The notes below the pieces were generated by a model. It worked only from the letters and a program-made list of their open reading frames with translations, did not search any database and was not told the DNA's origin. Of a stretch of DNA of 64,000 nucleotides, positions 2,204-36,385 are shown one piece after another. Numbering within the stretch: the first letter of the stretch is position 1; the number at the start of each line of letters is the position of its first letter. The stretch comes from Kiritimatiellia bacterium. GTDB taxonomy: Bacteria > Verrucomicrobiota > Kiritimatiellia > RFP12 > UBA1067. The stretch is from the NCBI GenBank assembly GCA_045628545.1, contig JAZQPI010000018.1, positions 3,643-67,642 of the forward strand, read 5' to 3'. The position numbers and the translations under genes were made by a program.

Positions 2204-3127
2204 ATGAGCATGATTCGAATTGTCGGTAAGCGTGGTAAGGGTTCGTTTGAGTCGCAGCTGGATGCGGCGGCGCTCGGGCAGGACTTCGTGCAGATCGACT
2301 GCACGTCCGGGAATAAGGACGAGGTGATGATGAAAGGGCTCTCTCCTTTTTACCTCGGCCCGATCGAGTGCTATGACGGACTCGTCGCGCAACGCTTTGA
2401 GCGTGCGTGGCAATGCGCGAAGGTCTATCCCTGGATGGTCGGGGCAGACGGGAATCCTGACGGGCGCTACTTTGCGTGGCGCGATGAGATGTGGGCGAAG
2501 GAGGGATTCGCGAATAAGAGCGAGATCCGATTCCCCGCAGGGAAGGGCAATGTCGGGAAGTGCCTTTACGCCTGGTGGAAAGTCGGAGGGGAGTTCCGGA
2601 AGCTCGGTTATGTCGCCGGACGTAAGGAGATCTACATTCCGCTTTACGCGAAGGCCGTGGTGAAAACCGAGGCGTACCGGCGGCTCTGCGAACTCCGCGA
2701 CGCGGGGAAGAATCTGATGTTGATTGACTTCGATGGCTATAACATCCATCATCCCCACTACAACTTCACCTACAACGACGCGATCCATTGTCCGATCCTG
2801 AAGATGGGGCACGGCTTTGTTCTGGCGATGTTGCTGGAGGGGCTGATTACTGTCGATGAGAACGGCGCGGTGAAGTACGCCGAAGGGCTGATGACGCCGC
2901 CGAATCGGACCTGGTCGTCAGACCTCCGGAAGCTGTCCGACGAGGTGAAGCTCGCACGCAATGCGACGGCCCTTGGCGTGACGCCCGAGGAGTTTGATGC
3001 GCTCGACGCCGCGACGCGCAAGTGGCTCCGTGCCGCGGCGAAGAAGGAAACGGTCTATGCCCGAGGCTTCACGAAGGCTGGGTGGAAGCGCCTGCCGCTT
3101 GGGGAGAAGCTGAAGTTTCGCGATTAA
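2204..3127 (+). CDS. hypothetical protein (307 aa), no family recognised
   Basis: Clean ORF with a GAAAGGAAAA RBS about 8 nt upstream and protein-like composition. Sits directly downstream of the GmrSD-like gene. Confidence 0.5.
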   Translation: MSMIRIVGKRGKGSFESQLDAAALGQDFVQIDCTSGNKDEVMMKGLSPFYLGPIECYDGLVAQRFERAWQCAKVYPWMVGADGNPDGRYFAWRDEMWAKEGFANKSEIRFPAGKGNVGKCLYAWWKVGGEFRKLGYVAGRKEIYIPLYAKAVVKTEAYRRLCELRDAGKNLMLIDFDGYNIHHPHYNFTYNDAIHCPILKMGHGFVLAMLLEGLITVDENGAVKYAEGLMTPPNRTWSSDLRKLSDEVKLARNATALGVTPEEFDALDAATRKWLRAAAKKETVYARGFTKAGWKRLPLGEKLKFRD

Positions 3128-3222: not shown

Positions 3223-3870
3223 ATGGCTACACGTCCGTTCTATCGTCCGTTGGAGAAGTTCGCCGGATACAAGACCGTCGATTCGGCGCCGTTTGAATGG
3301 CACGGCGGGTTCGCGTTCTCGCAGAAGCAGAAGAATGTCGTGGCGCTGCACGACGCCATCAAGAAGGTCGATCCGACGGCGAGGACGCTGGAGATCTCGA
3401 GCAAGTCGCTGCAGCCGCTGGGCGTGTCCCTGAGCGCGTTCAACCTGATGATGGACCTGAACGGCACGAAGTGTTCGGTCGAGTCGGTCTTCCAGTCCGG
3501 AAAGGTGTTCGAGGGCGGGGTCGGTCCGTTCCCGGAACTCTGCTCGCACGATTCGCGCGAGGTCCGTCATTTCGTCCAGGATCAGTCGGCCGGTCGCCGT
3601 CTGGTCGCCTTCGAGGTGAGCGGGGAACGGTGGCCGCTGGAGCCGAAGACCGCGTTCTTCTATCATCTCTACTTGAAGGCGCTGGTTGACAATCCGACGC
3701 TCGCCGACGGACTGATGGAATATGACGCGTTCACCGACATCGAGTTCAATCCGAAGCGGCAGATCAACTGTCAGGCCGCGGCCGCCGCGTTTTACGTCTC
3801 GCTGAGAAAGCTCGGAAAACTCGAGTGGGCGATGTCCTCGAAAGAGAATTTCCTGCGGACGAATCCGTAG
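3223..3870 (+). CDS. hypothetical protein (215 aa), no family recognised
   Basis: Clean ORF with an AAAGGA RBS. Separated from the upstream gene by a weak GAACGC...GCGTTC hairpin. It does not match the DarT YHFTHIDNL motif I recall. Confidence 0.5.
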   Translation: MATRPFYRPLEKFAGYKTVDSAPFEWHGGFAFSQKQKNVVALHDAIKKVDPTARTLEISSKSLQPLGVSLSAFNLMMDLNGTKCSVESVFQSGKVFEGGVGPFPELCSHDSREVRHFVQDQSAGRRLVAFEVSGERWPLEPKTAFFYHLYLKALVDNPTLADGLMEYDAFTDIEFNPKRQINCQAAAAAFYVSLRKLGKLEWAMSSKENFLRTNP

Positions 3871-4476: not shown

Positions 4477-4615
4477 CCGGCTGTTTGAGGCGCGGGGGTG
4501 GTCCCGCCTGCTCGCCCGATCCGCAGATGACGGGCCCCACGACATGATTTCGACGCGCGTGCTGGGGCACGCGCCCGTACGCCGGCGGTCGAAATCACGT
4601 CGCACCCGTCATCGT

Positions 4616-4638
4616 GCTCTCGTGCGCCAGTCGGCTCC
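4616..4638 (+). repeat. 23-bp direct repeat copy 1 (GCTCTCGTGCGCCAGTCGGCTCC)
   Basis: Identical 23-mer recurs at 4798-4820. The two copies bracket a microsatellite block. Confidence 0.6.
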
Positions 4639-4735: not shown

Positions 4736-4792
4736 CCAAATCGAACAATCGAACAATCGAACAATCTGAACAATCGAACAATCGAGCAATCT
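4736..4792 (+). repeat. tandem 8/9-mer microsatellite (AATCGAACA x ~6) preceded by CAACTC x ~4
   Basis: cgaacaatcgaacaatcgaacaatctgaacaatcgaacaatcgagcaatc followed by TTTTTT. Confidence 0.7.
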
Positions 4793-4797
4793 TTTTT

Positions 4798-4820
4798 GCT
4801 CTCGTGCGCCAGTCGGCTCC
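4798..4820 (+). repeat. 23-bp direct repeat copy 2
   Basis: Identical to 4616-4638. Confidence 0.6.
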
Positions 4821-5185
4821 GAGAGAGTGAAATCGATCTGGCGACCGTCAATATTGGGTGAGACAGACTCTTATTGATGTTCAAAGTGGCAAACTCGCAC
4901 CCTTGCGACGCTTACGATATTTTCTTTATTTTCCAAACCCGCAAAAAATTGATATAGTGTGCGTGGTTTTATTTTTGAGGGCCCTTGGACTCTCAATTTT
5001 GCTCCTTGACAACTGATTTCATCAATCTCCGTGAACAGAAAGGCGTGTCTTTTGAAGATGTGTCTTTTTTTAAAAAATCAACAAGAAAGGAGGTTTATAT
5101 AATATAATGACACTTTCGTGTGTCAGGTGTCCGGCATTGCAAGATTGTGCCGGCAGTACAGTTTACTATTACGAAAGGAGCGAAA

Positions 5186-5362
5186 ATGAAGACAGACAAC
5201 CTATTCGAGGAAATAAAAATCAAGATGGTCATGAAACTTCGTGGCTTGCCCCGCGAGGCGGCCGTCAAGGAGCTGCGCGGGAGCTGCGGCCGGTCGATGG
5301 ACATCGGCCGCTGCGAAAGCGACGAGCTTATGTCAGCCGAAGATTTTTTTGGCGAGGACTAA
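5186..5362 (+). CDS. small hypothetical protein (58 aa) immediately upstream of clpP
   Basis: AGGAG RBS 5 nt before the ATG (acgaaaggagcgaaaATG). A TATAAT element lies ~85 nt upstream (5098-5103). The leader contains a CCGGCA...TGCCGG hairpin. The C-terminus is acidic (EDFFGED). Confidence 0.4.
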   Translation: MKTDNLFEEIKIKMVMKLRGLPREAAVKELRGSCGRSMDIGRCESDELMSAEDFFGED

Positions 5363-5391
5363 AACATTAACCAACGAGAAAGGACGACAAC

Positions 5392-5970
5392 ATGCAGAAT
5401 ATGCTGATCCCGATAGTAGTCGAAAAGTCAGGCGGCGGGGAGCGCGCGTATGACATCTATTCGCGCCTCCTGAAGGACCGCATCGTGTTCGTGAGCGGTG
5501 AAGTCGAGGACGGAATGGCCAACGCCATCGTCGCGCAGCTTCTGTTCCTCCAGGCCGAGGACCCGGAGAAGGAGATCTCTATGTACATCAACTCGCCGGG
5601 CGGCAGTGTTACGGCGGGACTCGCCATCCTCGACACCATGAAGATGGTGAAGTGCCCGGTCGCGACCTATTGCGTCGGCCAGGCGGCTTCGATGGGGGCG
5701 ATCCTGCTCGCGGCCGGCGAGAAGGGCCGCCGTCACGCGCTCCCGAACGCCCGCATCATGATCCACCAGCCGTGGGGCGGTGCGCAGGGCAAGGCCAGCG
5801 ACATCGAGATCACCGCGAAGGAGATACTTCGGCTCAAGGAAATCCTGAACGGCATCCTCGCGGAAGCCTCCGGCAAGACGCTCGAAGCCGTCACCAAGGA
5901 TACCGACCGCGACCACTTCATGTCCGCCGCCGAGGCCAAGTCCTGGGGTATCGTGGACAAGGTCTTGTAA
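5392..5970 (+). CDS. clpP: ATP-dependent Clp protease proteolytic subunit ClpP
   Basis: Catalytic-triad contexts GQAASMG (Ser), MIHQP (His) and an acidic residue; length 192 aa; characteristic YSRLLKDRI start. Confidence 0.95.
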
Positions 5971-5985
5971 GGGGCCTTGGCTTTC

Positions 5986-6022
5986 AAATCGAACAATCAA
6001 ACAATCACACAACCAAACAATT
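5986..6022 (+). repeat. CA-rich degenerate octamer repeat (AATCGAACA AATCAAACA ATCACACA ACCAAACA) directly upstream of the AAA+ gene start
   Basis: Same AATCGAACA unit as the 4736-4792 microsatellite. It ends 8 nt before the ATG at 6030 and no Shine-Dalgarno is visible there. Confidence 0.5.
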
Positions 6023-6029
6023 CCCTATT

Positions 6030-8204
6030 ATGGCTAAATTCAAACAGGTTCCGCAGTCATATCTCTTCCACAAGCTCTTGAACTTCTGGGGGAATATGGT
6101 TAAAAACTACAGCAGCGAAGTGCAGGACAATGACTTTTTCGACATCGTCCGCAACTGCTTCGACCACGACAAGGCGGTCGAACTGATTGAGATCGCCTAC
6201 ACGCCAGAAGAGATCAAGGCGATGACGGAGAGCCGCTCTCGCCGCGGCCGCCTCGACTTCGACGATTCTCTCGACGATGTCTTTCAGAGCCTCTGGAATC
6301 ACGACGAGAACCGTGAGAAGTGCCGCATCGTCCTGCAGTCCATCAAGGACTATATGGCCGACGACAGCCCCAAAACCAAGGACGAGACGATGGAAAGGCG
6401 CTTCATGGAGCTGAAGCGCGTCCTTCATCTTTCCGACCTCGAGTTCGACTTGCTGACCGTCGCCTATGTGAGTTCTCAGACCTGCTTCTGCTGGCCGCGC
6501 CGCGTCGCGGACCGCGACAAGCCGCTCTACTTTGCGATGGCGCTCGACCGCTCCTATCCCGAGGTCCTGCAGGCGATGAACGCGAAGGGCAGGCTCCGCA
6601 AGTTCAACCTGCTGGACAGCGACTGGGACTTCAACTGCCGCACCATCGGCGGCTACATCGACGGTACCGACTCCGAGGCCGTCGAGCGTCGCTTCTACAA
6701 GCGGAACGCGGAGGCCGAGGTCCTGCCGTGGGACTTCTACGGCGAACTCGCGTCCAAGGACGGCGAGGTCCTGAAGCGCATGCTGGCGGCGAAGCCCAAG
6801 AAGTGCAATATCCTCTTCTACGGCGCGCCGGGAACGGGCAAGACCTCCTTCGCCCGTACGCTCGCCGAGGAGCTCGGCCGCACGGCCTGGGAGATCAAGC
6901 AGGGCGACGATGACGGCAAGAACATGAAGTCCGAGGCCCGTATGATGGGCATCCAGATCTGCAACGAGCAGGAGTCCGCCGACGAGTCGCTCATGATCGT
7001 CGACGAGGCGGACGAGCTTCTGCGCGGCAGCTCGTGCGGATTCAGCCCCTTCGACCTCGACATAGGCGGGAAGTCCACCGAGAAGGGCGTGATGAACGCG
7101 ATGCTCGACGAGATGAAGATGCCGGCGGTGTGGATCTCCAACGCGCCGGCGTGCATGATGGACGAGAGCGTCCGCCGGCGTTTCGACTACTCGATCTGCT
7201 TCGAGGAGCTGAACAACACGCAGCGCGTCTCCATCTGGCGCAATGTCGTCAGGAAGCTTGAACTCGGCGATCTGATCTCCGAGACGCAGATCGCCGACTA
7301 CGCCGAGAAGTACGCGACGAGCGCGGGCGGCATTTCGACCGTCCTTGATAACGTCAAGCGCCTCAACCCCGGAAAGGACAAGGTGGACGAGACCGTCGCG
7401 ACGCTCATGAAGCCGCACTGCAAGCTCATGGAGGTCAAGGAGGCGAACCGCTTCCTTCCCGCCAAGGGCTATTCGCTCGAAGGCCTCAACATCAAGGGCA
7501 AGGTCGGCCTTGAGAAGGTCGTGAAGGCTGTCCGCAACTACATGGACGCGTCCTTCAACGCGAAGAGCGAAGACGTGCCCCGCATGAACCTGCTCATGTT
7601 CGGACCGCCCGGAACGGGCAAGACGGAGTTCGTGAAGTATCTCGGCAAGGAACTCGACCGCAAGATCATCGTGATGAAGGGCTCGGACATTCTCTCGAAG
7701 TGGGTCGGAGAATCCGAGCATAACATCGCGAAGGCCTTCATCCGCGCCGGACAGGAGCGCGCGATACTGTTCTTCGACGAGATCGACGGACTCGTCCAGG
7801 CGCGCGAGCGGGCCTCGTGTAGCTGGGAGGTCGCCCAGGTCAACGAGCTTCTCCAGCAGATGGAGAACTTCGACGGCGTGATGATCGCGGCGACGAATTT
7901 CTGCAAGAACCTCGATCCGGCGATCATGCGCCGCTTCACGTTCAAGCTGGAGTTCGACTATCTTGACGACGCGGGCAAGAAGTCCTTCTTCGAGCGCATG
8001 TTCAAGACCGAGCTGACCGACGCCGAGTTCGGCGAACTGAAGTCGATCAGGAACCTCGCGCCCGGAGACTTCCGCACGGTTCGCCAGGAGTCCTTCTACC
8101 TCGGAGAGGCCCAGACGAACGCGGACCTCATCGCGGCACTGAAGGATGAATGCGCACTCAAGAAGGACGGCGAGAAGACGGCGAAAATCGGTTTCGGCGC
8201 CTAA
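6030..8204 (+). CDS. tandem classic-clade AAA+ ATPase (two AAA modules, Cdc48/FtsH-like) with a C-terminal IGFGA tail, encoded directly downstream of clpP
   Basis: D1 has Walker A GAPGTGKTS, Walker B IVDEADEL and RRRFD. D2 has Walker A GPPGTGKTE, Walker B ILFFDEIDGL and SRH ...IAATNFCKNLDPAIMRRF. A ~265-aa N-terminal domain of unknown type precedes them. The last residues are ...TAKIGFGA. Start was chosen at the first ATG with protein-like downstream sequence; the track extension from 5652 overlaps clpP in another frame. Confidence 0.8.
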   Translation: MAKFKQVPQSYLFHKLLNFWGNMVKNYSSEVQDNDFFDIVRNCFDHDKAVELIEIAYTPEEIKAMTESRSRRGRLDFDDSLDDVFQSLWNHDENREKCRIVLQSIKDYMADDSPKTKDETMERRFMELKRVLHLSDLEFDLLTVAYVSSQTCFCWPRRVADRDKPLYFAMALDRSYPEVLQAMNAKGRLRKFNLLDSDWDFNCRTIGGYIDGTDSEAVERRFYKRNAEAEVLPWDFYGELASKDGEVLKRMLAAKPKKCNILFYGAPGTGKTSFARTLAEELGRTAWEIKQGDDDGKNMKSEARMMGIQICNEQESADESLMIVDEADELLRGSSCGFSPFDLDIGGKSTEKGVMNAMLDEMKMPAVWISNAPACMMDESVRRRFDYSICFEELNNTQRVSIWRNVVRKLELGDLISETQIADYAEKYATSAGGISTVLDNVKRLNPGKDKVDETVATLMKPHCKLMEVKEANRFLPAKGYSLEGLNIKGKVGLEKVVKAVRNYMDASFNAKSEDVPRMNLLMFGPPGTGKTEFVKYLGKELDRKIIVMKGSDILSKWVGESEHNIAKAFIRAGQERAILFFDEIDGLVQARERASCSWEVAQVNELLQQMENFDGVMIAATNFCKNLDPAIMRRFTFKLEFDYLDDAGKKSFFERMFKTELTDAEFGELKSIRNLAPGDFRTVRQESFYLGEAQTNADLIAALKDECALKKDGEKTAKIGFGA

Positions 8205-8247
8205 ACGGGTTCGACTGAAAACGAAGGGGAATACTATATGAGGAGAT

Positions 8248-8300
8248 TCTGGCGTTATATCGCTTTAAAAGCGCATATAACGCCAGAAATCCTTTTTATT
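8248..8300 (+). terminator. rho-independent terminator after the AAA+ gene
   Basis: 13-bp perfect inverted repeat TCTGGCGTTATAT...ATATAACGCCAGA with a palindromic loop, followed by CTTTTTTATTTT. Confidence 0.7.
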
Positions 8301-8399
8301 TTCCAAGAGCCGAATATTTTGATATGATGAAAAGCGCAAAGGGGCCCGGCATATTTCATTCACACTACGAATTCACACTACGAAAGGACAATACAACCT

Positions 8400-9122
8400 A
8401 TGATAACTCGTGGAAAAGATGAAAAATTCATTCCCAGTATCGCGGAATGGGGAAGATTGTACGACGTTTGGGCGAAGAAAATCACTGGAGAACTCTGGGT
8501 GATGGGTTCCAGGGCTGACGTTCTGGACGCGACACAAGAGGCGTTTTTGAAGATTATGGGTCTTTCGAAGAAGTTCCGGCTTGAGAAGCCGCTCGCGCCG
8601 ATGTCCGTCGGAGCGTGGTACTCCTGTGTCCGCCAGCAGGCCAAGTGGATTCTCGGCCATGAGCGCGCGAAGAACCGGTATTGGCGCGCGACGGCGAACA
8701 CCGTGGATGAACTGGTCCGTGAGCTGGAAGCGGCGGACGAGGGCGCGAAGTGCCGCGGACGTCGGCTGATGGGTCTTTTGGTGGACCTCGAAGGCCGCGA
8801 GTTTGAGGCGGAACTTCCGGGCGATCGGCTGGACGCCGAATGGCTCGTTCGCAAGGTCCGTCGGCTGGTGGATGAAGTCTGCCGTACGCACGGCGTCTCG
8901 GAGCGCCACCATAACGCCTTTGTCCGCTATGTGCTGGACGAGATGCCGACCGCGGCGGTCGCGGTCGAGGTCTGGGGCGCGACGGACTCGCTCGTGGAGA
9001 TCGCCGCTCGCCGGAACAACCTGTTCGTCATCAAGAACCGGATCATGCACCTTTTGAAGGGCGTCGCCGCTGAATGGCGGTCGCGCGGCGGCAACTACGC
9101 CACGTTCTTAGACGTGGCGTGA
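8400..9122 (+). CDS. divergent ECF-type sigma-70 family factor (putative)
   Basis: DATQEAFLKIMGLSKKFR resembles region 2.1/2.2 (DLVQETFLRAW...F). A C-terminal HTH-like region 4 follows (SLVEIAARRNNLFVIKNRIMHLLK). Length 240 aa. Confidence 0.5.
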   Translation: MITRGKDEKFIPSIAEWGRLYDVWAKKITGELWVMGSRADVLDATQEAFLKIMGLSKKFRLEKPLAPMSVGAWYSCVRQQAKWILGHERAKNRYWRATANTVDELVRELEAADEGAKCRGRRLMGLLVDLEGREFEAELPGDRLDAEWLVRKVRRLVDEVCRTHGVSERHHNAFVRYVLDEMPTAAVAVEVWGATDSLVEIAARRNNLFVIKNRIMHLLKGVAAEWRSRGGNYATFLDVA

Positions 9123-9174: not shown

Positions 9175-9465
9175 ATGAACGTGGACAAGGAAGTCAAATA
9201 CGATGAGATGGACGAGTACAATGCAGACGAGTGGGACGAAAAGGCGATAGCAGAGACCGCAAGGAGAAATCAGCTCGGCTGGCGGGCGGACTGCGTACAG
9301 ATTTGCGAGTCCGACCTGTATTCGCAGGAGGTGCGCGATCTTGCGGCAAGGCTGATTTGGCTCATTGACGATGTCGCGTGCATGTATCACGGCGGTCCGC
9401 TGAAGCTCAAGTCGTTAAATGAGATGGTGCACACGCTCGAAAAACTCCGTGAGAAGGTCCAGTGA
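9175..9465 (+). CDS. hypothetical acidic protein (96 aa), possible sigma-factor partner
   Basis: AAAGGAACGG RBS and an ORF downstream of the sigma-like gene. Confidence 0.4.
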   Translation: MNVDKEVKYDEMDEYNADEWDEKAIAETARRNQLGWRADCVQICESDLYSQEVRDLAARLIWLIDDVACMYHGGPLKLKSLNEMVHTLEKLREKVQ

Positions 9466-9621: not shown

Positions 9622-9771
9622 ATGAACAACAAGAAATACGTGTGCAAGATCTGCGGCTGGGTTTACGATCCGGCCGAGCATGACAACGTGGCGTTCGAGG
9701 ACCTGCCGGCCGACTGGACGTGCCCCGTCTGCGGAGTGGGCAAGGACGACTTCGAACCCGCCTACAACTGA
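9622..9771 (+). CDS. rubredoxin (49 aa)
   Basis: [49 protein letters not shown] has both CxxCG knuckles and the conserved W and Y residues. GGAGG lies 9 nt upstream. Absent from the six-frame track because it is shorter than 60 aa. Confidence 0.9.
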
Positions 9772-9926: not shown

Positions 9927-11500
9927 ACTTTGAGCTGTGTGGCTCACGCTGTAGCTCCTGGGAACCGGATGGGATTCGTGCACCCCGATTCGCCCGGCAT
10001 CGGCTTCAGCAGAGGTCTGCCGCGAACAGTTCCCTGAATCCAGGAAGGAATTCCAGCAGCTCGTTTTCGGTTGGCGCGGGTTCCGGATCGATGATCTTGC
10101 GGCACCATTTTCCGAATCGCGTGAAGGCGCGTTTGAGCCCGTCCGCGATCGCGTAGTTGGCGAACTCCGGGACCTTGCCGAGCCTCTGTGAAAGCGTCTT
10201 CAGATGCTCTGCGAGGACTTCGCGCTTCACATGTCGTCCGAGCCAGGCCGAAGCGAAGTACGTCGTGGCGAGGACGATCGACGCCATGTTGCGGATGCCG
10301 CAGTAGGACAGCACCCGGATGTTCTCGAATCCATAGGCCTGCTTGACGAACCGGATCGTCTCCTCGATCCTCCAGCGCGTGAGGTATCCTTCGACGATCC
10401 GCCACATCGACTCGAACGATCCATTGACGGGAAGCGACGTCAGCAGCATCATCGGGTCGTCGCCAAAGCCTTTCGCCACGATCATGTGCAGTTCCTTTTC
10501 AGGATGCATGGGAAGGCGTACGGGTATCGCTCCGAACGAGATCTGCACGCTGCATTCCTTCCCGTGGGAGTCGAACTCGACATGATGATGGTGACGCATG
10601 GTGCATTGCTGGGCGGGCCAGTGGATCTCGTGAAGGCCTTTCCACGAGAGCACGTTCCGTCCCGTCATGCGGACGATGAAGTCCCAGCCGTTCTTTATGA
10701 AAGCCCCGTAAAATGCGGGTCTGTCGCCGCCTCTGTCATATACGAGGATGCCTTTGCCGCCGGTCGCGGACATGATTGCGGTGATGAGCTTGAGCACTTC
10801 GTCGTTTTCTCCCAGATGTCCGGGAGCGCGCGACGACCAGAGTTTGAGCGCGAGCGGTACGGTCTTGCGCCTGCCGCTCTGACAGGCGACGGCCATGCAG
10901 CCGTGATAGCCGTGCACGAGCACCTCGCATCTTTCTTTCGACGAGCGGCTTGCGTCCCTGACCATCGTGACGTGCTCCATGTGAAGACCGAACTCCTTCC
11001 GGATCTCCGTCGGGTCGACTAGTATGAGTGAGTCGTCGCGGACGTGCTTCGCGCCTTCCGCGAGGATGGCCTTGTCGATTTCCATGCCGATTCCCTCGTT
11101 CGCCACGTTACGGCTCAGTCGCTTCTCGACGGCGTGTTTCATGTCGGGATCGTCGTTGATCGCCCGCATGATCGACGAGAGCTGCGTGTCTCCCGAGGCC
11201 TGTATCCCGTAGAGCATGTCGGCCAGGAACTTCTTCCTCGGCTTCGAGAAATGGGTAAACACTTTACCCAGAAATTTTCTGAGTTGCTCTTTCGCTCTGA
11301 AGGCAATTGTGCTATCATTCATGTCGTGGTCTTCTCCTTTCGTTCATTTAGCGCATCCTGTATTCTACAGGAAAACGGGACGGGAAGACCACGCTTTTTT
11401 TCAGACGGTGTGGAGATGGCCTAGTCGCGAGAGGGGTTTCAGTCTGGCGAAGCGGTAGTGTGAGCCACACCGTTCGGAGTCAAAATTGGCGGGCAGGGCG
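9927..11500 (-). mobile_element. insertion sequence (~1.55 kb) with terminal inverted repeats and a single DDE transposase
   Basis: GTGTGGCTCAC at 9937-9947 is the reverse complement of GTGAGCCACAC at 11480-11490. The match extends imperfectly by ~10 bp on each side (ACTTTGAGCT vs ACTCCGAACG). No clear target-site duplication seen. Confidence 0.75.
10006..11322 (-). CDS. IS4/IS1634-like DDE transposase (438 aa)
   Basis: Full-length ORF on the minus strand. LVYDRGGD...RWRIEETIRFVKQAYGFENIRV is characteristic of IS4-superfamily transposases. Bounded by the terminal inverted repeats. Confidence 0.8.
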   Translation of the reverse strand: MNDSTIAFRAKEQLRKFLGKVFTHFSKPRKKFLADMLYGIQASGDTQLSSIMRAINDDPDMKHAVEKRLSRNVANEGIGMEIDKAILAEGAKHVRDDSLILVDPTEIRKEFGLHMEHVTMVRDASRSSKERCEVLVHGYHGCMAVACQSGRRKTVPLALKLWSSRAPGHLGENDEVLKLITAIMSATGGKGILVYDRGGDRPAFYGAFIKNGWDFIVRMTGRNVLSWKGLHEIHWPAQQCTMRHHHHVEFDSHGKECSVQISFGAIPVRLPMHPEKELHMIVAKGFGDDPMMLLTSLPVNGSFESMWRIVEGYLTRWRIEETIRFVKQAYGFENIRVLSYCGIRNMASIVLATTYFASAWLGRHVKREVLAEHLKTLSQRLGKVPEFANYAIADGLKRAFTRFGKWCRKIIDPEPAPTENELLEFLPGFRELFAADLC

Positions 11501-11998: not shown

Positions 11999-12130
11999 AG
12001 TCCGGTAGGCGTGTTATTAAGAAAGTCTGGGGATCGAATCAATGGCCTCGAGAGTGGTCGGCGGTCAGTCGACTGTTGGCATATTTCGGCGCGGAAGATA
12101 TGGTTGGACCGTGCGCTGGGGACGAATGAT

Positions 12131-13957
12131 ATGACTTTGTCTGAAGATCAGCAGTTGGCGCTTGATGCGATGATGTCCGGGAAGAACGTCTTCCTGACAG
12201 GCGAAGCCGGTACGGGCAAGTCCACAGTGCTTCGGGAGTTCCGGACTCGATGTGATCGTGCCTGCGTGGTTTTGGCTCCTACCGGGGTTGCGGCCATCAA
12301 TGCCGGTGGCGCGACAATTCACAGCTTCTTCATGCTGCCGCCTGGATTGATGACACCGGATACGATCGATGAAATTACTCATGGCAAGAAAAGGGCGATC
12401 ATCCGGGCGACAAAGACAATTATCATTGATGAGATCTCAATGGTGCGCAGTGATGTGTTTGCAGCTATGGATATACGGCTCCGCGGACTGGCTCGAGGTG
12501 GTAATGCAAAGCGCCCATTTGGCGGGAAGCAGATTATTCTCGTGGGCGATTATTTCCAGTTGCCGCCAGTAGTGAAGACCGAGACGGAGTCTGATTATCT
12601 CAATAATCATTTGGGTGGCGGGTACGCTTTCCAGACCAGGCTTTGGGCGGATGCTAAGTTCAAGTGCGTGTTCCTCCGCAAGGTCCATCGTCAGCGCAAT
12701 GACGTGCGATTCCTCGCGATTCTGAACAGCATTAGACATGGTTCTTTGGATGATGCCAATGTTGAGGTTGAAGGCGGGGTTCGCATTACGGCTGCCGAGG
12801 CGCTGAATCGATACTGTCTCAATAATGAGCGTCTCCCTGCTGAGCCGATTTGCCTTTGCACGACGAATCGAGAGGCGCATGCGCTGAATACGGCGGCAAG
12901 GGCACGATTGAAAGCGCAAGGTTCCAAGTTTGTCGCTGTTGTAAGCGGCAGGTTCCCGGAGGCTGATTATCCGACGGAATTTAGTCTTGAGCTTATGAAG
13001 GGAGCGCGTGTCATGTTGCTTACCAACAAGCGCCTCCCGGATGGAGACTATGAATATGTCAATGGCGATATGGGAGCGGTGACGGAAATCTCCAGCTTTG
13101 ATGAATCGCCAAGGGTTCAAATCAGGCTTGATCGCAATGGGCGAGAAGTGTCGGTGGCGAGCAAAGAATGGAAGAACTATGCATATGTGATTGAGGAGGA
13201 TAAAATTAGTGGCAAGAAGGTTCTTCGTCAGCGCGAAATCGGAAAGTTCGCCCAAATTCCTCTTCGGCTTGCCTACGCAATTACCGTGCACAAGTCACAG
13301 GGACTGAGTTTGGACTGCGTGGATATCCGTCTTGGAAGCGGGTGCTTTACGCATGGGCAGCTCTATACGGCGCTTTCTCGCTGCCGGTCGCTAGAAGGGC
13401 TTCGGATTGATCGGACCGTCATGAAGGATGACCTTATTCTAGACGATGCGGTTGTCCGGTTCTACAAGACGATAGAGGAAGGATGGGAGCGCTCTGACAA
13501 GACTGTGTCATTGGACGTGCCGCCGGAATTCGAGGCTGCGATGAAGGCGTATCTTGAAAAGCTGAAGTCGGGAAGAGGCAATGTCCAGTCGGCCCCAGGG
13601 AGTCCTGTGTTGCGGCATCGTCCTGTTCAGCGAGAGTTGGGCTTGCCGTCGGTTCCACCCTCAATATTGGAATCTCCACAATCGTTACTACATGAAAACA
13701 ACAGACGAGAGGAGCGCGTGAGTGATCATATTGATCTGGAGAAGTTGCGCGTCGTCTATTCGGGACAGACAGGGTCGGAGAAATCGGATGGAATGACCAA
13801 AAAGGAAAATGGCGTCGGCTTTAATAAGTTCGATGCGCCGATATTGTCTCGGATTGCCGAAGGGTTCTTCAAAAACGGCTGGGTGACACGGACGGAGCTG
13901 GCGGAGGTGACGCATCGTATTCAGAAGTATCGTCGCCAGTGGGAAGGGCGGGTCTGA
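12131..13957 (+). CDS. Pif1/RecD-family 5'-3' DNA helicase (608 aa) with a C-terminal extension
   Basis: Walker A LTGEAGTGKST, then VLAPTGVAAINAGGATIHSFF, DEISMV, ILVGDYFQLPPV, AITVHKSQGLSLD, YTALSRCRSLEGL. The track ORF starts earlier (12011) but the helicase N-terminus aligns from the Met at 12131. Confidence 0.85.
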   Translation: MTLSEDQQLALDAMMSGKNVFLTGEAGTGKSTVLREFRTRCDRACVVLAPTGVAAINAGGATIHSFFMLPPGLMTPDTIDEITHGKKRAIIRATKTIIIDEISMVRSDVFAAMDIRLRGLARGGNAKRPFGGKQIILVGDYFQLPPVVKTETESDYLNNHLGGGYAFQTRLWADAKFKCVFLRKVHRQRNDVRFLAILNSIRHGSLDDANVEVEGGVRITAAEALNRYCLNNERLPAEPICLCTTNREAHALNTAARARLKAQGSKFVAVVSGRFPEADYPTEFSLELMKGARVMLLTNKRLPDGDYEYVNGDMGAVTEISSFDESPRVQIRLDRNGREVSVASKEWKNYAYVIEEDKISGKKVLRQREIGKFAQIPLRLAYAITVHKSQGLSLDCVDIRLGSGCFTHGQLYTALSRCRSLEGLRIDRTVMKDDLILDDAVVRFYKTIEEGWERSDKTVSLDVPPEFEAAMKAYLEKLKSGRGNVQSAPGSPVLRHRPVQRELGLPSVPPSILESPQSLLHENNRREERVSDHIDLEKLRVVYSGQTGSEKSDGMTKKENGVGFNKFDAPILSRIAEGFFKNGWVTRTELAEVTHRIQKYRRQWEGRV

Positions 13958-16959: not shown

Positions 16960-19900
16960 ATGAAGTTGAGCATCAGAAAGTCCATTGACGCATTGAAGCC
17001 GTTTTCGCGGATCTTCGTGGAGCGTCCCCGCTTCGCGATGGTGATTGCCATCTGTCTGTCGATCGCCGGGACGATGGCGATCTTCACGCTGCCGGTCTCG
17101 CAGTATCCGCGCCTCACGCCGCCGACGATCAGCGTGTCCTACAACTATCCCGGCGCGAACGCCAGGGAGGTGATGAACACCATCGCCATGCCGATCGAAG
17201 ACGAGGTGAACGGCGTCGACGACATGCTCTACATGACCGGCTCGTGCTCGGACGACGGCAGTTACCAGCTCACCGTGAGTTTCGAGGTCGAGTCCGACCG
17301 CGACATGGACATGGTCAAGGTGCAGAACCGCGTGTCGCAGGCGGAGGCGAAGCTGCCGGCGGAGGCGAAACAGCTCGGCGGACGCATCCGCGCGCAGAGC
17401 GAGGACCAGCTCGGCTTCATCTGCTTCCGTTCGCCGAACGGCACGATGACGCGCCAGCAGATCTCCGACTACATTTACGGCAACATCCAGCCCGTCCTGC
17501 TGCGCATCCCCGGCGTCGGCGAGGCGACGGTGTACGGTCCGCGCCTGTCGATGCGCGTGTGGCTCGACCCGCAGCGGCTGGCGGCGCAGGGGATGAACTC
17601 CGAGGAGGTGATCGCCGCGGTCTCCAAGCAGAACGTGCAGGCCTCGCTCGGCAAGGTGGGCGCGAGCCCGATTCCGTCGCACGCCGCGAAGACCTACACG
17701 CTCATCTCCAAGGGCCGCCTCATGAGTCCGAAGGAGTTCGAGGACATCGTCATCCGCCGCGACGATCAGGGCGGCCTCGTGCGCCTGCGGGACGTCGCGC
17801 GGACGGAGATCGGCGAGGAGAACTACATGTTCACCGGCCAGTTCAACGGCCAGAACGCGGTGTCCGTCGCGCTCGCCCAGAAGCCGGGGGCGAACGCGAT
17901 CGCGACGATGGACGCGATCTACGCGGCGATGCACGACCTGGAGGGGACCTTTCCGGCGGACTTCGCGTGGAGCGTGCCCTACGACGCGACCGACTACGTG
18001 CGCATGTGCATCAGCGAGATCGTCGAGACGCTGCTCATCACCTTCGCGCTCGTGGTGTTCGTCTGCTACCTCTTCCTGCAGGACTGGCGGGCGACGCTGA
18101 TCCCGTGCCTGACGATTCCGGTGTCGATCTGCTCGACGTTCATCCTGATGGCGGCCCTGGGCTACTCGATCAACCTGCTGACCCTGTTCGGACTCGTGCT
18201 GTCGATCGGCGTGGTGGTTGACGACTGCATCGTCGTCGTCGAGCGCGTGCAGTACCTCATCGAGACGCGCGGCCTCAACGCGAAGGAGGCGACGATCCAG
18301 GCGATGAGCGACGTGACGTCTGCCGTCATCGCGACGACGCTCGTGCTGCTCGGGATCTTCGTGCCGGTCGGGTTCATGAGCGGCATCACGGGCCGCATCT
18401 ACCAGCAGTTCTCGGTCACGCTCTCCGCGGCGGTCTGCTTCTCGACGCTGTGCGCGCTCACGCTCGCGCCGGCGCTGACCTCGCTCCTCCTCCACGAGGC
18501 GCGGCCGTTCAGGCACGGTCCGTTCGCGTGGTTCAACTGGGCGGTGGCGCGATTCAAGGGCTTCTTCGTGGTCTGCGCGAAGTGGCTCGCGTCGCGGCTC
18601 TTCCTGACGGCGATGCTCCTTTTGCTGACGGTCCTCCTCACGGTCCACTTCTTCATGGGGACGGAGACGAGCTTCCTGCCGGACGAGGACCAGCACGTCG
18701 TGTTCGTCCAGCTGGAGATGCCCGAGGGCACGGCGCGCGACCGCACGCGCGACGTCTCGCTGCGCGCGGTGGAGACGCTGGGCAAGATCCCCGAGATCGC
18801 GAGCGTCCTCACCATCACCGGCTTCTCGCCGATGGGCGGGCGCGGCGAGAACCTCTGCTTCCTCGTCGCCGACCTCACCGACTGGTCGGAGCGCCCGCTG
18901 CCCGAACAGCACGCGCTGCGGATGGTCGGCAAGATCCAGGCGGCCCTGGCCGCGATTCCCGAGCCGAAGTGGAGCGTCTTCACGCCGCCGGCGATTCCCG
19001 GCCTCGGCCTCGCCAACGGCATCAGCTTCCACATCCTGAACAAGGTCGACACCGACCCGATGAAGGTCGACGCGGTGCTCGGGAACCTCCTGATGAAGCT
19101 GAACGCGCGTTCCGACGTGATGATGGCGATGTCCGGCTTCAACGCGCAGACGCCGAAGCTCTACTTCAACCTCGACCGCGTGAAGGCCGAGATGCTGAAG
19201 GTCCCGGTCGCGACCGTCTACACGACCCTGCAGAACTACCTCGGCTCCCGTTACGTGAACGACATCAACCTCGGCACGCAGGTGAACCGCGTGACGGTGC
19301 AGGCCGACTTCACCGGCCGCGCGACGCCCGAGGACATCTCGCGGCTCTACGTCCGGAGCGAGACGGGGGCGATGGTGCCGGTCGGCTCGCTCGGCACGCT
19401 GACGCGCGAACTCGGTCCGCGCACGGTCGCCACGCGCGACAAGTACCTCGGCGCGGCGGTGACGGTGATCCCGGCGCCGGGCGTGGCGACGGGCACGCTC
19501 ATGAACGAGATCCGCGCGATGGCCCGCGCCGAAATGCCCGAGGGCTTCGACATCTCCTGGGCGGGCATCTCCTATCAGGAGGCCCGCAACGAGGGCACTG
19601 CCGCGCCGCTCATCCTGCTCGCGGTCATCTTCGGCTACCTCTTCCTCGTCGCGCAGTACGAGAGCTGGACGATTCCGCTGCCGGTGATGCTGTCGATCTT
19701 CGTCGCCGTGCTCGGCGCGCTCGTGGGCCTGCGCTACTGGGGCCTCCTCACGACCGGGGCGCCGTTCTCGCTGTCGGTGTACGCCCAGCTCGGCCTCGTC
19801 CTCCTCGTCGGCCTCGCCTCGAAGAACGCGATCCTGATCGTCGAGTTCGCGAAGGACAAGCGCGAGATCGAGGGCTGCGGCATCGTCGAGGCCGCGGGCC

Positions 19901-32956: not shown

Positions 32957-34458
32957 ATGGAAGCAACTACCGACATCAAGTCCCTGGACATCGTCGCCGC
33001 GCTGAAGAAGCCGCGCGCGAACTTCACCAAGGCGGACATCAAGCGGTTCATCAAGTCCCGCGGCATCCGTCACGTCAACTTCATGTATCCGGGCGGCGAC
33101 GGCCGGCTGAAGACGCTGAACTTCATCCTGAACGACGAGGCCTATCTGGACGAGATCCTGTCCTGCGGCGAGCGCGTCGACGGGTCGTCCCTCTTCAGCT
33201 ACATCGAGGCGAGCTCCTCCGACCTCTACGTCGTGCCGCGCTTCTCGAGCGCGTTCGTCGATCCGTTCGCCAAGCTGCCGACGCTGTGCCTGCTGTGCTC
33301 GTTCTTCAACAAGGACGGCGAGCCGCTCGAGTCCAGCCCCGAGTACACGCTGCACAAGGCCTGCGCCGCGTTCCGCAAGGAGACGGGGCTCGAGTTCCAG
33401 GCGATGGGCGAACTGGAGTACTACGTCATCAGCGACGCCCCCGCGGCGTTTCCGGCGAAGGACCAGAAGGGCTATCACGAGTCCGCCCCGTTCGCGAAGT
33501 TCAACGAGTTCCGCCAGAAGTGCATGCTCTACATCTCCCTGGCGGGCGGGCGCATCAAGTACGGCCACAGCGAGGTCGGCAACTTCACGCAGGGCGGCCG
33601 GCTCTACGAGCAGAACGAGATCGAGTTCCTGCCGTGCGCGGCGGAGGACGCGGCGAACCAGCTCACGGTCGCGAAGTGGATGATCCGCAACCTCGGCAGC
33701 GAATACGGCTACGACGTCACCTTCGCGCCGAAGATCACCTCGGCAAGGCGGGCTCGGGCCTCCACATCCACATGCGGCTGATGCGCAACGGCAAGAACCA
33801 GATGCTCAAGGCGGGCAAGATCAGCGACGCGGCCAAGCGCGCGATCGCCGGCATGATGAAGCTCGCGCCTTCCATCACGGCGTTCGGCAACATGAACCCG
33901 ACGAGCTACTTCCGCCTCGTGCCGCACCAGGAGGCGCCGACGAACGTGTGCTGGGGCGACCGCAACCGCTCCGTGCTCGTGCGCGTGCCGCTCGGGTGGA
34001 CGGCCAAGACCGACCTCTGCAAGGCGGCGAACCCGAAGGAGACCGCCGCGGCCTACAACACGTCCGAGAAGCAGACCGTCGAAATGCGCTCGCCGGACGC
34101 GTCCGCGAACGTCTACCTGCTGATGGCGGGCCTCGCGGTCGCCTGCCGTCACGGCTTCACGCTGAAGGACGGCGTCAAGTTCGCCGAATCGACCTATGTG
34201 AACGTCAACATTCACAAGGCCGAGAACGCGGCGCTGCTGAAGACGCTGGCGACGCTGCCCGACAGCTGCGCGGCGTCGGCGGACCGTCTGGCCGAGCAGC
34301 GCGCGGTCTACGAGGAGGCGGGAGTCTTCTCGCCGGCGATGACCGACGGCATCCTCGCCCAGCTCCGCGCGTTCGACGACCGGACGCTCCGCCGCGACAT
34401 CCAGAACAAGCCGGAGGCGGTCGCGAAACTGGTCAAGGAGTACTTCTACTGTGGTTGA
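32957..34458 (+). pseudogene. glnA: glutamine synthetase (GlnA-like) with a single-base frameshift near 33735
   Basis: N-terminal beta-grasp, then ...VTFAPKI in one frame and LGKAGSGLHIHMRL (GS ATP-binding signature), NPTSYFRLVP in the next frame. The two halves are collinear with E. coli GlnA (TFMPKP..GDNGSGMHCH). One base is missing between AAGATC and GGCAAG. Confidence 0.75.
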
Positions 34459-36385
34459 CCGGATTGTGAAGGTTCACTTCATCGGCATCGGCGGGGTCGG
34501 CATGGCCGGCCTCGCAGTGTCGCTTAAAAACCGCGGATACGAGGTGTCCGGCTGCGATCTGCGGCCGACACCCCGTACGCGCTGGCTCGAGTCCGAGGGG
34601 ATCTCCGTCGCCTTCGGACACGACCCGGGGCATGTGGAGGGCGCGGACGAGGTCATTGTCACGCCGGCGGTCGCGGCGGACAATCCTGAGTTTGTCGCCG
34701 CAGGCGCGCGGACCGGTCTCCGCCTCCGTCGGCGCGGCGAAGTCCTGGCGGAGATCGTGTCGTCCGCGGCGGATTCGATCGCCGTCTGCGGCAGTCACGG
34801 CAAGACGACGACTTCGACTTTCGTGGCGCGGCTGCTCCTGGCGCTGGGCGAAAGCGTCGAGTGGGTGATCGGCGGAGAGACGGGGGAGTTTCCGGTGGCG
34901 GGCCGCGTGTGCCGCGACGGACGTTCGCCGGTCCTCGTCGTCGAGGCGGACGAAAGCGACGGCACGCTGGCGCTCTACCGGGCGAAGACGCTCGTCGTCA
35001 CCAACTGCGAATACGACCATCCCGCCCACTTCCCGACGCCGGCGGACTATGCCGCCTGCTTTGACGTGGCGCGGAGCAGAGCGGAGACGGTCATGGAGGC
35101 CGCGACGCTGGACGCGCCGACGGCCGAAGATTTTGCGTTTCTCGACGAACTGCCGACGCACAACCGGCGCAATGCGGTTGTGGCGATTGAAATCGCGCGC
35201 CGCCGCGGACACGGCTTGGCGGCGATCGCCGCCGCGATGAAGCCGATCGTCCGGCAGCTCCCCGACCGGCGCTTCCAGCGCGTCTGGCCGATGGATGACG
35301 CTACGGCCGAGACCGCGGCGGTTTATACGGACTATGCGCATCATCCGACGGAGATGCGCTGTGCCGTGGAAATGGCGCGGCGCGTTTGCCGCGGTCGGCT
35401 CGTGGTTCTCTTTCAGCCGTATCGATACTCGCGCACGAAAGGGCTGCTCGCGGAATTCCCCGCGGCGTTCGCGGGGGCGGACGAGGTGGTCATCTGTCCC
35501 ATCTGTTCGGCGTTTGAGCCCATGCTCGAGGGCGGTAGCGATGCCGATCTTTATGCCGAATGTCGGCGGCGGGAGGCGGACTGCGGCTTCGGAAGCGTCT
35601 ATCTGGCGCGCAGTTGCGAAGAGGCCTGGGAACATGCGCTGCGGACCGCGTCCGCGCCCGGCGACGTCACGCTGCTTCTCGGAGCTGGGGACATCGTCCG
35701 TCTCGTCGACCGTGTGCGGGCCGATTGCGCGTCGCCTTGCGAGCGGCCGCCGCGGCGCATCTGGATCGGGCAGGGGACGAATACCTGGAAGAGCGATCTG
35801 AAGCTGAACGTCGAATACGTGCGGACGACTGGCCGGGCCGACGGTCCGGGCGCCGCGCTGGGAATCCCGTGGATGGCGGGAGTGCCCGGCACGGTCGGCG
35901 GCTGGATCAAGATGAACGCCGGGGCTTTCGGACATTCGATTTCCGAAGTCCTTTCGCGGGTGAAGGTCGACGGCGTCTGGCGGTCGGCGGACGAGTGCGG
36001 CTTCGGCTACCGCCATTCGGGGATCGACGGGGAGATCCAGGACTACGAACTGAAGCCGGACGCGTTGCGGGACGCGGGTTCCGCGGCGGATTATCTGGCG
36101 CGGCGTCCGCGGTTCCCGGCGGGGACGAAAGGCAGCGTCTTCAAGAATCCGCCGGGCGATTCCGCCGGCCGACTGCTGGAGGCGGCGGACTGCAAGGGGT
36201 TGCGCGTCGGCGGGGCGTACGTGTGGGAGCGGCACGCGAACGTGATCGTCTCCGAAGAGGGGGCGCGGGCGTCCGACTTTCTGGCGCTCGCGCAGCTGAT
36301 GCGCATACGCGTCCTTATGTGTTTCGGCGTCGATCTTCAGCCGGAGGTAGCCGGTCTTGACGAACTGATTCAGGACGGCAGATGA
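34451..36385 (+). CDS. murC: bifunctional UDP-N-acetylmuramate--L-alanine ligase / UDP-N-acetylenolpyruvoylglucosamine reductase (MurC-MurB fusion)
   Basis: N-terminus HFIGIGGVGMAGLA and GSHGKTTTS (Mur ligase). C-terminal third VPGTVGGWIKMNAGAFG, GSVFKNP, HANVIV (MurB). GTG start overlaps the glnA stop. Confidence 0.85.
   Translation: MVDRIVKVHFIGIGGVGMAGLAVSLKNRGYEVSGCDLRPTPRTRWLESEGISVAFGHDPGHVEGADEVIVTPAVAADNPEFVAAGARTGLRLRRRGEVLAEIVSSAADSIAVCGSHGKTTTSTFVARLLLALGESVEWVIGGETGEFPVAGRVCRDGRSPVLVVEADESDGTLALYRAKTLVVTNCEYDHPAHFPTPADYAACFDVARSRAETVMEAATLDAPTAEDFAFLDELPTHNRRNAVVAIEIARRRGHGLAAIAAAMKPIVRQLPDRRFQRVWPMDDATAETAAVYTDYAHHPTEMRCAVEMARRVCRGRLVVLFQPYRYSRTKGLLAEFPAAFAGADEVVICPICSAFEPMLEGGSDADLYAECRRREADCGFGSVYLARSCEEAWEHALRTASAPGDVTLLLGAGDIVRLVDRVRADCASPCERPPRRIWIGQGTNTWKSDLKLNVEYVRTTGRADGPGAALGIPWMAGVPGTVGGWIKMNAGAFGHSISEVLSRVKVDGVWRSADECGFGYRHSGIDGEIQDYELKPDALRDAGSAADYLARRPRFPAGTKGSVFKNPPGDSAGRLLEAADCKGLRVGGAYVWERHANVIVSEEGARASDFLALAQLMRIRVLMCFGVDLQPEVAGLDELIQDGR

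Follow-up and report, generated by a model that had tools for sequence, protein, structure and literature searches.

An operon of clpP and a tandem AAA+ ATPase

The window analyzed here is a 64-kb stretch of DNA (contig JAZQPI010000018.1, positions 3,643 to 67,642), part of a ~70-kb contig of a metagenome-assembled genome from a Kiritimatiellia bacterium. Three genes on the same strand of the window form an operon, as read from the list of open reading frames (ORFs) and directly from the sequence: orf58, clpP, and a gene for a 724-aa ATPase, with gaps of 29 and 59 nt between them. An original prediction, made from the sequence alone, had already picked out this arrangement, and its outline held. 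A 58-aa ORF at 5186 to 5362 lies upstream of clpP, and the gene that starts 59 nt past the clpP stop codon encodes two classic-clade AAA modules (PF00004) and a product ending in IGFGA. The features of the operon and of the gene behind it are as follows.

4930 to 4958, + strand: putative promoter-like site upstream of the operon, TTTCCA-17 nt-TATAGT with TG, sigma-70-like by consensus scan
4962 to 5185, + strand: putative 5′ leader, predicted to fold into several hairpins (−61.6 kcal/mol; z = −2.54)
5186 to 5362, + strand: orf58, small conserved protein of 58 aa, first gene of the module
5392 to 5970, + strand: clpP, here called ClpP-B, 192 aa (PF00574, TIGR00493)
5987 to 6021, + strand: A/C-rich octamer leader, AATCAAAC in 4.4 copies (Tandem Repeats Finder), immediately before the ATPase start codon and with no Shine-Dalgarno sequence
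6030 to 8204, + strand: tandem classic-clade AAA+ ATPase, 724 aa, two PF00004 modules and a C-terminal IGF tail
6030 to 6764, + strand: N-terminal all-helical domain of the ATPase, residues 1 to 245, family specific, the presumed substrate or adaptor site
6780 to 7409, + strand: D1 AAA module, residues 251 to 460 (Walker A GAPGTGKT, Walker B IVDEAD, RRRF)
7572 to 8159, + strand: D2 AAA module, residues 515 to 710 (Walker A GPPGTGKT, Walker B FFDEID, pore loop K-W-V-G, arginine fingers MRRF)
8169 to 8201, + strand: flexible C-terminal tail, residues 714 to 724, DGEKTAKIGFGA, with a predicted local distance difference test (pLDDT) score below 50; the proposed ClpP-docking peptide
8240 to 8300, + strand: intrinsic-terminator-like hairpin followed by a U-run, end of the operon
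8400 to 9122, + strand: sigma-70-like protein, 240 aa (Sigma70_r2, E = 0.001, under the curated cut-off)

Classification of the ATPase

Profile and structure comparisons agreed with the prediction that the ATPase is Cdc48-like rather than related to ClpX or ClpA. The CDC48 subfamily model TIGR01243 scored 112.7 bits over residues 239 to 638 (cut-off, 802.65), compared with 33 to 38 bits for ClpX models in the D2 region (cut-offs, 359 to 371; TIGR00382, 33.5 against 370.75) and 34.3 bits for the ClpA model TIGR02639 over residues 448 to 551 (cut-off, 993). The closest sequence matches in the PDB were Cdc48, p97, and VAT, and the best Foldseek matches of the AlphaFold model in the PDB were Rix7/NVL, p97/Cdc48, and AFG2, with ~510 to 600 columns aligned. 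Because the CDC48 score exceeds those of ClpX and ClpA and the PDB and Foldseek matches point the same way, the assignment of the ATPase to the classic clade, as a Cdc48-like protein, is supported. Like Cdc48, p97, and VAT, it carries two classic AAA modules in tandem, seen as two PF00004 stretches; that in D2 covers residues 521 to 644 and includes the Walker B stretch ILFFDEIDGL and the arginine-finger stretch AIMRRF.

Placement in a named family was rejected: in hidden Markov model searches, the ATPase reached the curated threshold of none of the named families tried. Matches in Pfam, NCBIfam, and PADLOC were to generic AAA proteins, to IetA, and to CDC48, all far under their curated cut-offs. 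The best-scoring named family for D2 was IetA/IteA (NF042959, 129.6 bits; cut-off, 510), which matched over D2 only; the IetA profiles of PADLOC, 262 to 395 positions long, were likewise matched over D2 only. The PAN and pup_AAA models gave 62 to 84 bits against cut-offs of 500 to 750, and Pfam found neither Clp_N nor CDC48_N in the protein.

The AlphaFold model (mean pLDDT, 73) consists of a helical N-domain (residues ~10 to 190), D1 (255 to 460), a disordered linker (464 to 480), D2 (515 to 710), and a disordered tail (714 to 724). Both rings appear catalytically intact, with Walker A, Walker B, and arginine-finger residues invariant in alignments of 41 and 46 members. The D2 pore loop, [KM]-[YWF]-V-G, is similarly constrained among the 46 diverse members (aromatic residue in 45, Val in 43, and Gly in all 46). 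D1 has no aromatic pore loop: its pore-1 position is polar and variable, and its catalytic residues are invariant. In sequence and model, the ATPase has features expected of a ClpP partner, namely, a flexible [ILVM]-G-[FL] tripeptide, an aromatic-hydrophobic-Gly pore loop in the ring that would face the peptidase, and competent ATPase sites.

The C-terminal IGF tail

The ATPase ends in ...EKTAKIGFGA, with IGF at residues 720 to 722 (8187 to 8195), and the disordered tail begins 4 residues past the last D2 helix of the model. E. coli ClpX inserts its Ile268-Gly269-Phe270 between ClpP subunits, where the tripeptide packs into pockets, and the substitutions I268L and F270L abolish binding (PMC7112951; reviewed in PMC9035409). 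Conservation of the tail, without which the original prediction would have fallen, was found both in orthologs and in homologs only 28 to 35% identical. By hand tally, 117 of the 120 best homologs (68 to 100% identity, mostly from rumen or gut Kiritimatiellae) have (I/V)GF 0 to 2 residues from the end. Across 41 aligned sequences, including proteobacterial ones at 28 to 29% identity, none departs from G721 or F722, and conservation of I720 is 90% or higher; among 46 diverse representatives with a mean column identity of 35%, the tail Gly and Phe are again invariant, equal to the Walker and arginine-finger residues.

The same motif recurred in a search of 1.84 billion cluster representatives, which returned 3,266 at E < 1e−30. 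In 128 of the best 150 of these (50%-identity clusters; mostly full-length sequences, at 33 to 66% identity), [ILVM]G[FYL] falls within the last 12 residues; it lies no more than 3 residues from the end in 117 and at the exact C-terminus in 51. The remaining 22 are mostly fragments or FGF, WGF, or AGF variants. The distance from motif to C-terminus varies from 0 to 9 residues (mostly 0 to 4) in these 150 representatives, and the residues flanking IGF vary on both sides. The motif is also present in every one of the five plasmid copies inspected at the C-terminus (Pantoea, Rhodoferax, Sphaerotilus, Methylomonas, and Diaphorobacter), in all eight viral-contig members examined, and in copies from Rhodocyclaceae and other distant genomes. 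From typical residue frequencies we estimate that ~2 to 3% of random proteins would have [ILVM]-G-[FYL] in their last 12 residues. Judged from these counts, the tail motif exceeds chance, and a hydrophobic-Gly-Phe motif near the C-terminus is, in the alignments, a hallmark of the ATPase family.

The canonical ClpX of the Kiritimatiellae represented by L035 (5 to 811; L057, 10001 to 11299, is the same gene) reads ...RTIGYAGG at the IGF-loop position, with Tyr for Phe.

ClpP-B, an accessory paralog

The product of the window clpP is a ClpP by both PF00574 (E = 3.8e−82) and TIGR00493 (312.2 bits; cut-off, 308.6), and its catalytic triad is intact, with GQAASMG, MIHQP, and DTDRD aligning with S97, H122, and D171 of E. 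coli ClpP. Two classes of ClpP are found, with ~70% identity between them and 84 to 90% within. The window ClpP is 84 to 87% identical to ATPase-linked ClpPs and 71 to 72% identical to the tig/clpX-linked ClpPs of relatives, and because of this difference it is, on sequence grounds, an accessory second paralog, ClpP-B. Neither tig nor clpX adjoins its gene, as they would in the housekeeping tig-clpP-clpX arrangement.

A comparison of 25 ClpP-B sequences with 75 canonical ClpPs (E. coli mature numbering) yielded the class-specific changes Q9K, L31V, L61M, Y77L, Q81K, F82M, K110R, N116H, and I121V. We take F82 to line the hydrophobic docking pocket of ClpP and L61 to lie between the pocket residues Y60 and Y62, which would put F82M, Y77L, and L61M at or near the docking pocket. 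ClpP-B also stops at the equivalent of E. coli L189, with nothing beyond. In E. coli ClpP, R192 of the C-terminal stretch forms a hydrogen bond with the IGF loop of ClpX, whose binding is abolished by R192K (PMC7112951); the stretch that bears this residue is missing in ClpP-B. On the ClpX side, V274 packs into the ClpP pockets along with I268 and F270 (PMC7112951), and the ATPase tail, which ends 0 to 2 residues past its Phe, has no V274 equivalent. Since the tail lacks the one and ClpP-B the other, we infer that the two look co-adapted to a minimal, tail-type docking.

Linkage of the ATPase to clpP and the presence of clpX

The linkage seen in the window recurs in other genomes, as the original prediction required, and does so in three gene orders: small ORF-clpP-ATPase, clpP-small ORF-ATPase, and small ORF-ATPase-clpP. 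A clpP gene lies on the same strand 30 to 1,146 bp from the ATPase gene in 14 of 37 genome loci and also in L038 to L041. Where a Kiritimatiellae locus extends 3 kb or more to each side, the count is 9 of 19; a tenth, L027, retains only a fragment of ClpP in a chimeric ORF. Several metagenome-assembled genomes carry two copies of the ATPase, of which only one adjoins clpP where the flanks are long enough.

The converse also holds. When 80 metagenome ClpP loci were grouped by identity to the window ClpP, all seven at 82% or above carried the module (six with the ATPase; the seventh, at a contig end, with the small ORF and the sigma-like gene), and none of the 73 at 65 to 81% did; clpX adjoined clpP in 47 of the latter and tig in 38. 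Linkage therefore splits cleanly at ~82% ClpP identity.

No clpX, clpA, or clpC was found in the 64-kb window, and the original prediction had spoken of a clpP operon without clpX, implying that ClpX had been replaced. That implication was not sustained. A tblastn search with E. coli ClpX located a true ClpX at one edge of L035, and L057, a longer contig of the same genome, has tig, clpP (197 aa), and clpX in a row. About 5 kb further along L057 come a sigma-like gene, a small ORF, the ATPase, cpYpsA, a 70-aa ORF, and a second clpP (194 aa). A second Kiritimatiellae contig, L060, carries tig-clpP-clpX too, and ClpX is annotated in many Kiritimatiellae genomes. These relatives and the class of the window clpP indicate that in this lineage ClpX was probably not replaced and that the ATPase has a ClpP of its own. 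The prediction had named a canonical clpX beside a second clpP as evidence that would tell against it; such a pair does exist in relatives, yet a dedicated paralog strengthens the pairing of ATPase and ClpP.

Four side observations concern the makeup of these loci. Between the ATPase and clpP-B genes, L057 has a circularly permuted YpsA gene of the SLOG family (18859 to 19362; L035, 8371 to 8874, is the same gene). The small ORF of L057 between the same two genes ends in ...AAEFFAEKG, an FF motif that resembles the ends of the small-protein family described below. The chimeric ORF of L027 (5995 to 7602) fuses ATPase residues 214 to 717 directly to ClpP residues 166 to 192, through either an assembly chimera or a deletion, and L026 (6001 to 8105) holds a frameshifted ATPase copy.

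Regulatory elements and smaller genes of the module

The operon ends in a clear terminator-like structure. Its stem-loop (8240 to 8294 in the centroid fold) has a minimum free energy of −42.4 kcal/mol (z = −5.61), equaled by none of 200 shuffles. The hairpin-containing leader named in the original prediction fared less well: the hairpins are there, with only moderate significance (z = −2.54). Scanned against Rfam, the leader and the intergenic stretches gave only microRNA-like matches at chance level, due to the terminator hairpin. The octamer repeats, said to stand on both sides of clpP, are likewise real in part of what was claimed for them. The first array, AATCGAAC in 6.5 copies at 4739 to 4791, lies ~400 bp upstream of orf58 instead of flanking clpP, and neither array has a counterpart in relatives, whose ATPase leaders are simply A/C or A/G rich. 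We rejected the repeats as a conserved regulatory element, since relatives do without them. Octamer repeats and leader hairpins are probably incidental, and the arrays may possibly serve as an unstructured translation leader. An exact 24-nt direct repeat, TGCTCTCGTGCGCCAGTCGGCTCC, at 4615 to 4638 and 4797 to 4820 flanks a 158-nt segment that contains the AATCGAAC array and could be the footprint of a duplication or small insertion.

The product of orf58 has the core motif KIKMVMKLRGL and the C-terminal sequence LMSAEDFFGED and matched nothing in Pfam, NCBIfam, or PADLOC. Homologs of 58 to 128 aa occur in 18 related loci, always upstream of the ATPase, either directly or before an intervening clpP; many have MSAEEFFG at both ends, and their core reads KVKMVMRIYGV. 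An 83-aa upstream gene in Lentisphaeria loci was considered as a further homolog and rejected, being an unrelated Cys-rich repeat protein.

The sigma-like gene behind the operon is preceded at 8300 to 8328 by a second promoter-like site, TTTCCA-17-TATGAT, also with an upstream TG and near-identical to that of the operon. Homologs of the sigma-like gene stand upstream of the small ORF in seven loci (L003, L008, L024, L028, L031, L035, and L057) and near the module in three more (L020, L066, and L072). Control of a sigma/anti-sigma pair by the module is a speculative reading of this arrangement.

Distribution of the family and genomic neighborhood

More than 1,200 homologs of the ATPase were found, spread over Kiritimatiellae, Lentisphaeria, proteobacterial plasmids, and a few viral contigs; annotated copies are named just "ATP-binding protein" or "AAA family ATPase." The idea of a mainly phage-borne family was rejected, with 2 weak matches among 50,697 phage records and ~8 true members among the best 80 IMG/VR loci.

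Upstream of the module, the window begins within a GmrSD type IV restriction enzyme gene (2 to 1825, cut by the window start), followed by a 307-aa unannotated gene (2204 to 3127) and a DarT1-type NADAR antitoxin gene (3223 to 3870). The last two look like a DarTG1-like toxin-antitoxin pair, and a 66% identical homolog of the 307-aa gene adjoins clpP-B in L017. Downstream lie a 96-aa acidic ORF (9175 to 9465), a 49-aa rubredoxin (9622 to 9771), a DDE_Tnp_1 transposase on the − strand (10006 to 11322), and a PIF1-like helicase (12011 to 13957), which suggests that the region behind the module is mobile or variable. The rest of the window is housekeeping in character (RND efflux operons, MurC/B, SecY, and RpoD). 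One ORF in it, 34451 to 36385, joins Mur ligase (MurC-like) and MurB C-terminal domains in an apparent MurC-MurB fusion.

Elsewhere the company of the ATPase differs. Lentisphaeria copies are solitary. Of 10 proteobacterial or phage-like loci, 8 have a WYL(-WCX) regulator that adjoins the ATPase or lies within ~4 kb of it, and none has clpP next to the ATPase; the housekeeping ClpP would therefore be the one used there. The WYL-linked loci are L042, L043, L045, L046, L054, L055, L056, and L142 (plasmids and one unverified phage scaffold). Genes often found near proteobacterial copies include BREX-2, Sir2, PLD, SNF2, NERD, McrBC-like, DUF2779, RecB-like (TM0106), and PD-(D/E)XK nucleases. In L038 (12327 to 15069) and in L051 and L052 (10844 to 13424, one Lentisphaeria lineage), the ATPase is followed by a 361- to 494-aa gene and a ResIII/DEAD helicase; L038, from Kiritimatiellae, runs on from the helicase into a Type ISP restriction enzyme.

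Proposed mechanism and alternative explanations

The explanation that best fits these observations is that the ATPase represents a new class of ClpP partner, with the C-terminal tail as docking element and, in this bacterium, with a dedicated ClpP; on the sequences and the structural model we consider it probable, with ample room for doubt. For docking of the tail on ClpP taken by itself, the same evidence makes a reasonably likely case. We propose that the ATPase would form a hexamer whose D2 face sits on the ClpP-B heptamer, with the IGF tails entering the hydrophobic pockets between ClpP subunits. The helical N-domain would select substrates, the 58-aa protein could possibly be an adaptor, a regulator, or itself a substrate, and the K-W-V-G pore loops of D2 would pull the substrate into ClpP for degradation. 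In Kiritimatiellae, the partner would be the ClpP-B of the same operon, with its retuned docking surface, and not the housekeeping ClpP of tig-clpP-clpX. Extended to the whole family, the proposal is of a widespread branch of AAA+ proteases in which a Cdc48-like double-ring motor is wired to ClpP by a C-terminal IGF tail. In Kiritimatiellae it would be combined with a small protein, adaptor or regulator, and with a ClpP-B that has ceased to serve ClpX; in Proteobacteria it would be a WYL-controlled defense-island gene that hijacks the housekeeping ClpP. This extended picture seems to us evenly balanced between right and wrong.

Several points weigh against tail docking. No clpP is nearby in roughly half of the Kiritimatiellae loci or in any of the Lentisphaeria and proteobacterial loci examined, so that outside one Kiritimatiellae sub-clade the tail motif would be the sole argument for docking. 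D1 without a pore loop is unusual for a processive two-ring unfoldase, although not disqualifying. The positions of F82 and L61 relative to the docking pocket are assumed. C-terminal tails of other classic AAA proteins have other uses, such as cofactor binding in p97. IGF also follows the last helix after a short linker of ~9 residues. The IGF loop of ClpX is longer than this linker, and changes in its length lower ClpP binding (PMC7112951).

Some of these points would be accommodated if the ATPase were a ClpP-independent remodeler or segregase like Cdc48, Vps4, or Msp1, its tail serving ring assembly or another cofactor and its proximity to clpP-B reflecting co-regulation or inherited synteny. 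Classic-clade AAA proteins mostly work without a peptidase, most members outside the one Kiritimatiellae sub-clade are unlinked to clpP, and several loci pair the ATPase with helicases or WYL regulators instead. Against this reading stand the tail, which is the exact ClpP-docking tripeptide and invariant through the family, and ClpP-B, which occurs only beside the module, stays with it in three gene orders, and has diverged from canonical ClpP in or close to the surface for docking; we regard the reading as distinctly unlikely. Binding to ClpP might also be mainly regulatory, the protein acting as a gate opener or activator (compare acyldepsipeptides [ADEP]) or as a competitor that keeps ClpX off. 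Small molecules in the same pockets do open the ClpP pore (PMC7112951; PMC9035409), D1 lacks a pore loop, and the proteobacterial protein would share the housekeeping ClpP with ClpX and ClpA. A mere competitor, though, would not need a dedicated ClpP paralog, and a working translocase would need just the strict conservation that is seen in the D2 pore loop, the Walker motifs, and the arginine fingers; a purely regulatory role therefore appears very unlikely. Hardly credible is a genome without ClpX in which the ATPase has taken over the housekeeping ClpP: what speaks for it is the lack of clpX, clpA, and clpC in the window, against which stand the tig-clpP-clpX clusters of L057 (on one contig with the module) and L060, the ClpX annotated in many Kiritimatiellae genomes, and the accessory class of the window ClpP.

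A further reading concerns role and is compatible with docking. The module could be a conflict, defense, or stress system in which a signal of infection or DNA damage activates the ATPase and a phage or host protein is destroyed via ClpP, as in the comparison with IetA-IetS. The best PADLOC and NCBIfam matches of the ATPase are to IetA/IteA (over D2), the window module lies between GmrSD, the DarT1-type NADAR antitoxin, the transposase, and the PIF1 helicase, WYL(-WCX) regulators with defense genes around them accompany 8 of 10 proteobacterial or phage-like copies, and several metagenome-assembled genomes hold two ATPase copies. Set against this, the IteA score (129.6 bits against 510) means that the ATPase is not IetA, ClpP, orf58, and the sigma-like gene match no model in PADLOC, the surroundings of other loci are housekeeping genes (such as MutS, ribosomal proteins, and S4), and very few copies are on viral contigs. 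We consider such a system possible but doubtful, and a defense role in addition to docking on ClpP unlikely.

Relation to known systems

ClpX, ClpA, and ClpC belong to the ClpX or Hsp100 lineages and carry their docking tripeptide on an internal loop. They are the ClpP partners named in a review (PMC9035409). With ClpX, ClpA, ClpC, and ClpE, the ATPase would share the docking chemistry, a flexible [ILV]-G-[FL] tripeptide inserted into hydrophobic pockets of ClpP, and the proposed organization as a hexameric unfoldase feeding the ClpP chamber; ClpA and ClpC are also two-ring proteins. It differs in the position of the tripeptide, which stands at its extreme C-terminus rather than on a loop inside the last AAA+ module, in having two modules of the classic clade (PF00004), and in an N-domain unrelated to the zinc-binding domain of ClpX or to Clp_N.

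The likeness to Cdc48/p97/VAT and to the proteasomal ATPases PAN, Mpa, and Cpa, the last a bacterial Cdc48-like proteasome interactor (PMC6017811), lies in the shared AAA clade, in the tandem D1-D2 arrangement of Cdc48, and in a short tail after the last lid helix (HbYX or GQYL). The original prediction had drawn the parallel with HbYX tails, and it survives as an analogy: the short C-terminal tail is common to both, whereas HbYX and GQYL tails have a penultimate Tyr at a fixed position and the ATPase has Gly-Phe at a variable distance from the end, so that its tail does not qualify as one of them. The proteasomal ATPases target the 20S proteasome, whereas the peptidase inferred here is ClpP, a serine peptidase with seven-fold pockets. 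Cdc48 has an N-terminal double-psi barrel, in contrast to the helical N-domain modeled for the ATPase.

IetA contains one AAA module and is paired with IetS, a subtilase of the S8 family. As a pair of ATPase and serine protease in a defense-island context, IetA-IetS resembles the present system, but the ATPase has two modules and a putative ClpP partner, and there is no S8 protease among its neighbors in the window. In the ClpP1/ClpP2 systems of Mycobacterium, Listeria, Chlamydia, and Pseudomonas, too, a second ClpP is encoded away from the clpX-linked clpP and differs at the docking surface and C-terminus; in Listeria, the C-terminus of ClpP2 modulates access to the docking site (PMC9035409). 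The partners there are still ClpX and ClpC, whereas ClpP-B is linked only to a non-Clp ATPase. ClpI of Actinomycetota (PMC10149685) is a precedent for a ClpP-associated class of unfoldase defined from sequence alone, although it belongs to the Hsp100/Clp family and not to the classic AAA clade. The original prediction knew of no described ClpP partner with this architecture, and a full-text literature search, which covered few subscription journals, found no account of the ATPase family or of a tail-docking ClpP partner. What would be new in such an AAA+/ClpP protease is the class of its motor and the topology of its docking.

Among bacterial proteases, ClpP is well studied, and it is a target for drugs. 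If the proposal is true, its docking pocket would have been captured independently by a second AAA lineage, and the loop docking of Clp ATPases would be linked to the tail docking of proteasomal ATPases. ClpP-B is a natural test case for how the docking pocket sets partner specificity. ClpP-dependent pathways would also gain a family thousands strong, including plasmid copies in Ralstonia, Pantoea, and Pseudomonas luteola, which are plant- or human-associated Proteobacteria. The WYL and defense-island contexts suggest that regulated proteolysis may be tied to phage or DNA-damage responses and, should both the docking and a defense-island role in Proteobacteria prove true, ClpP would be an effector of conflict or stress responses.

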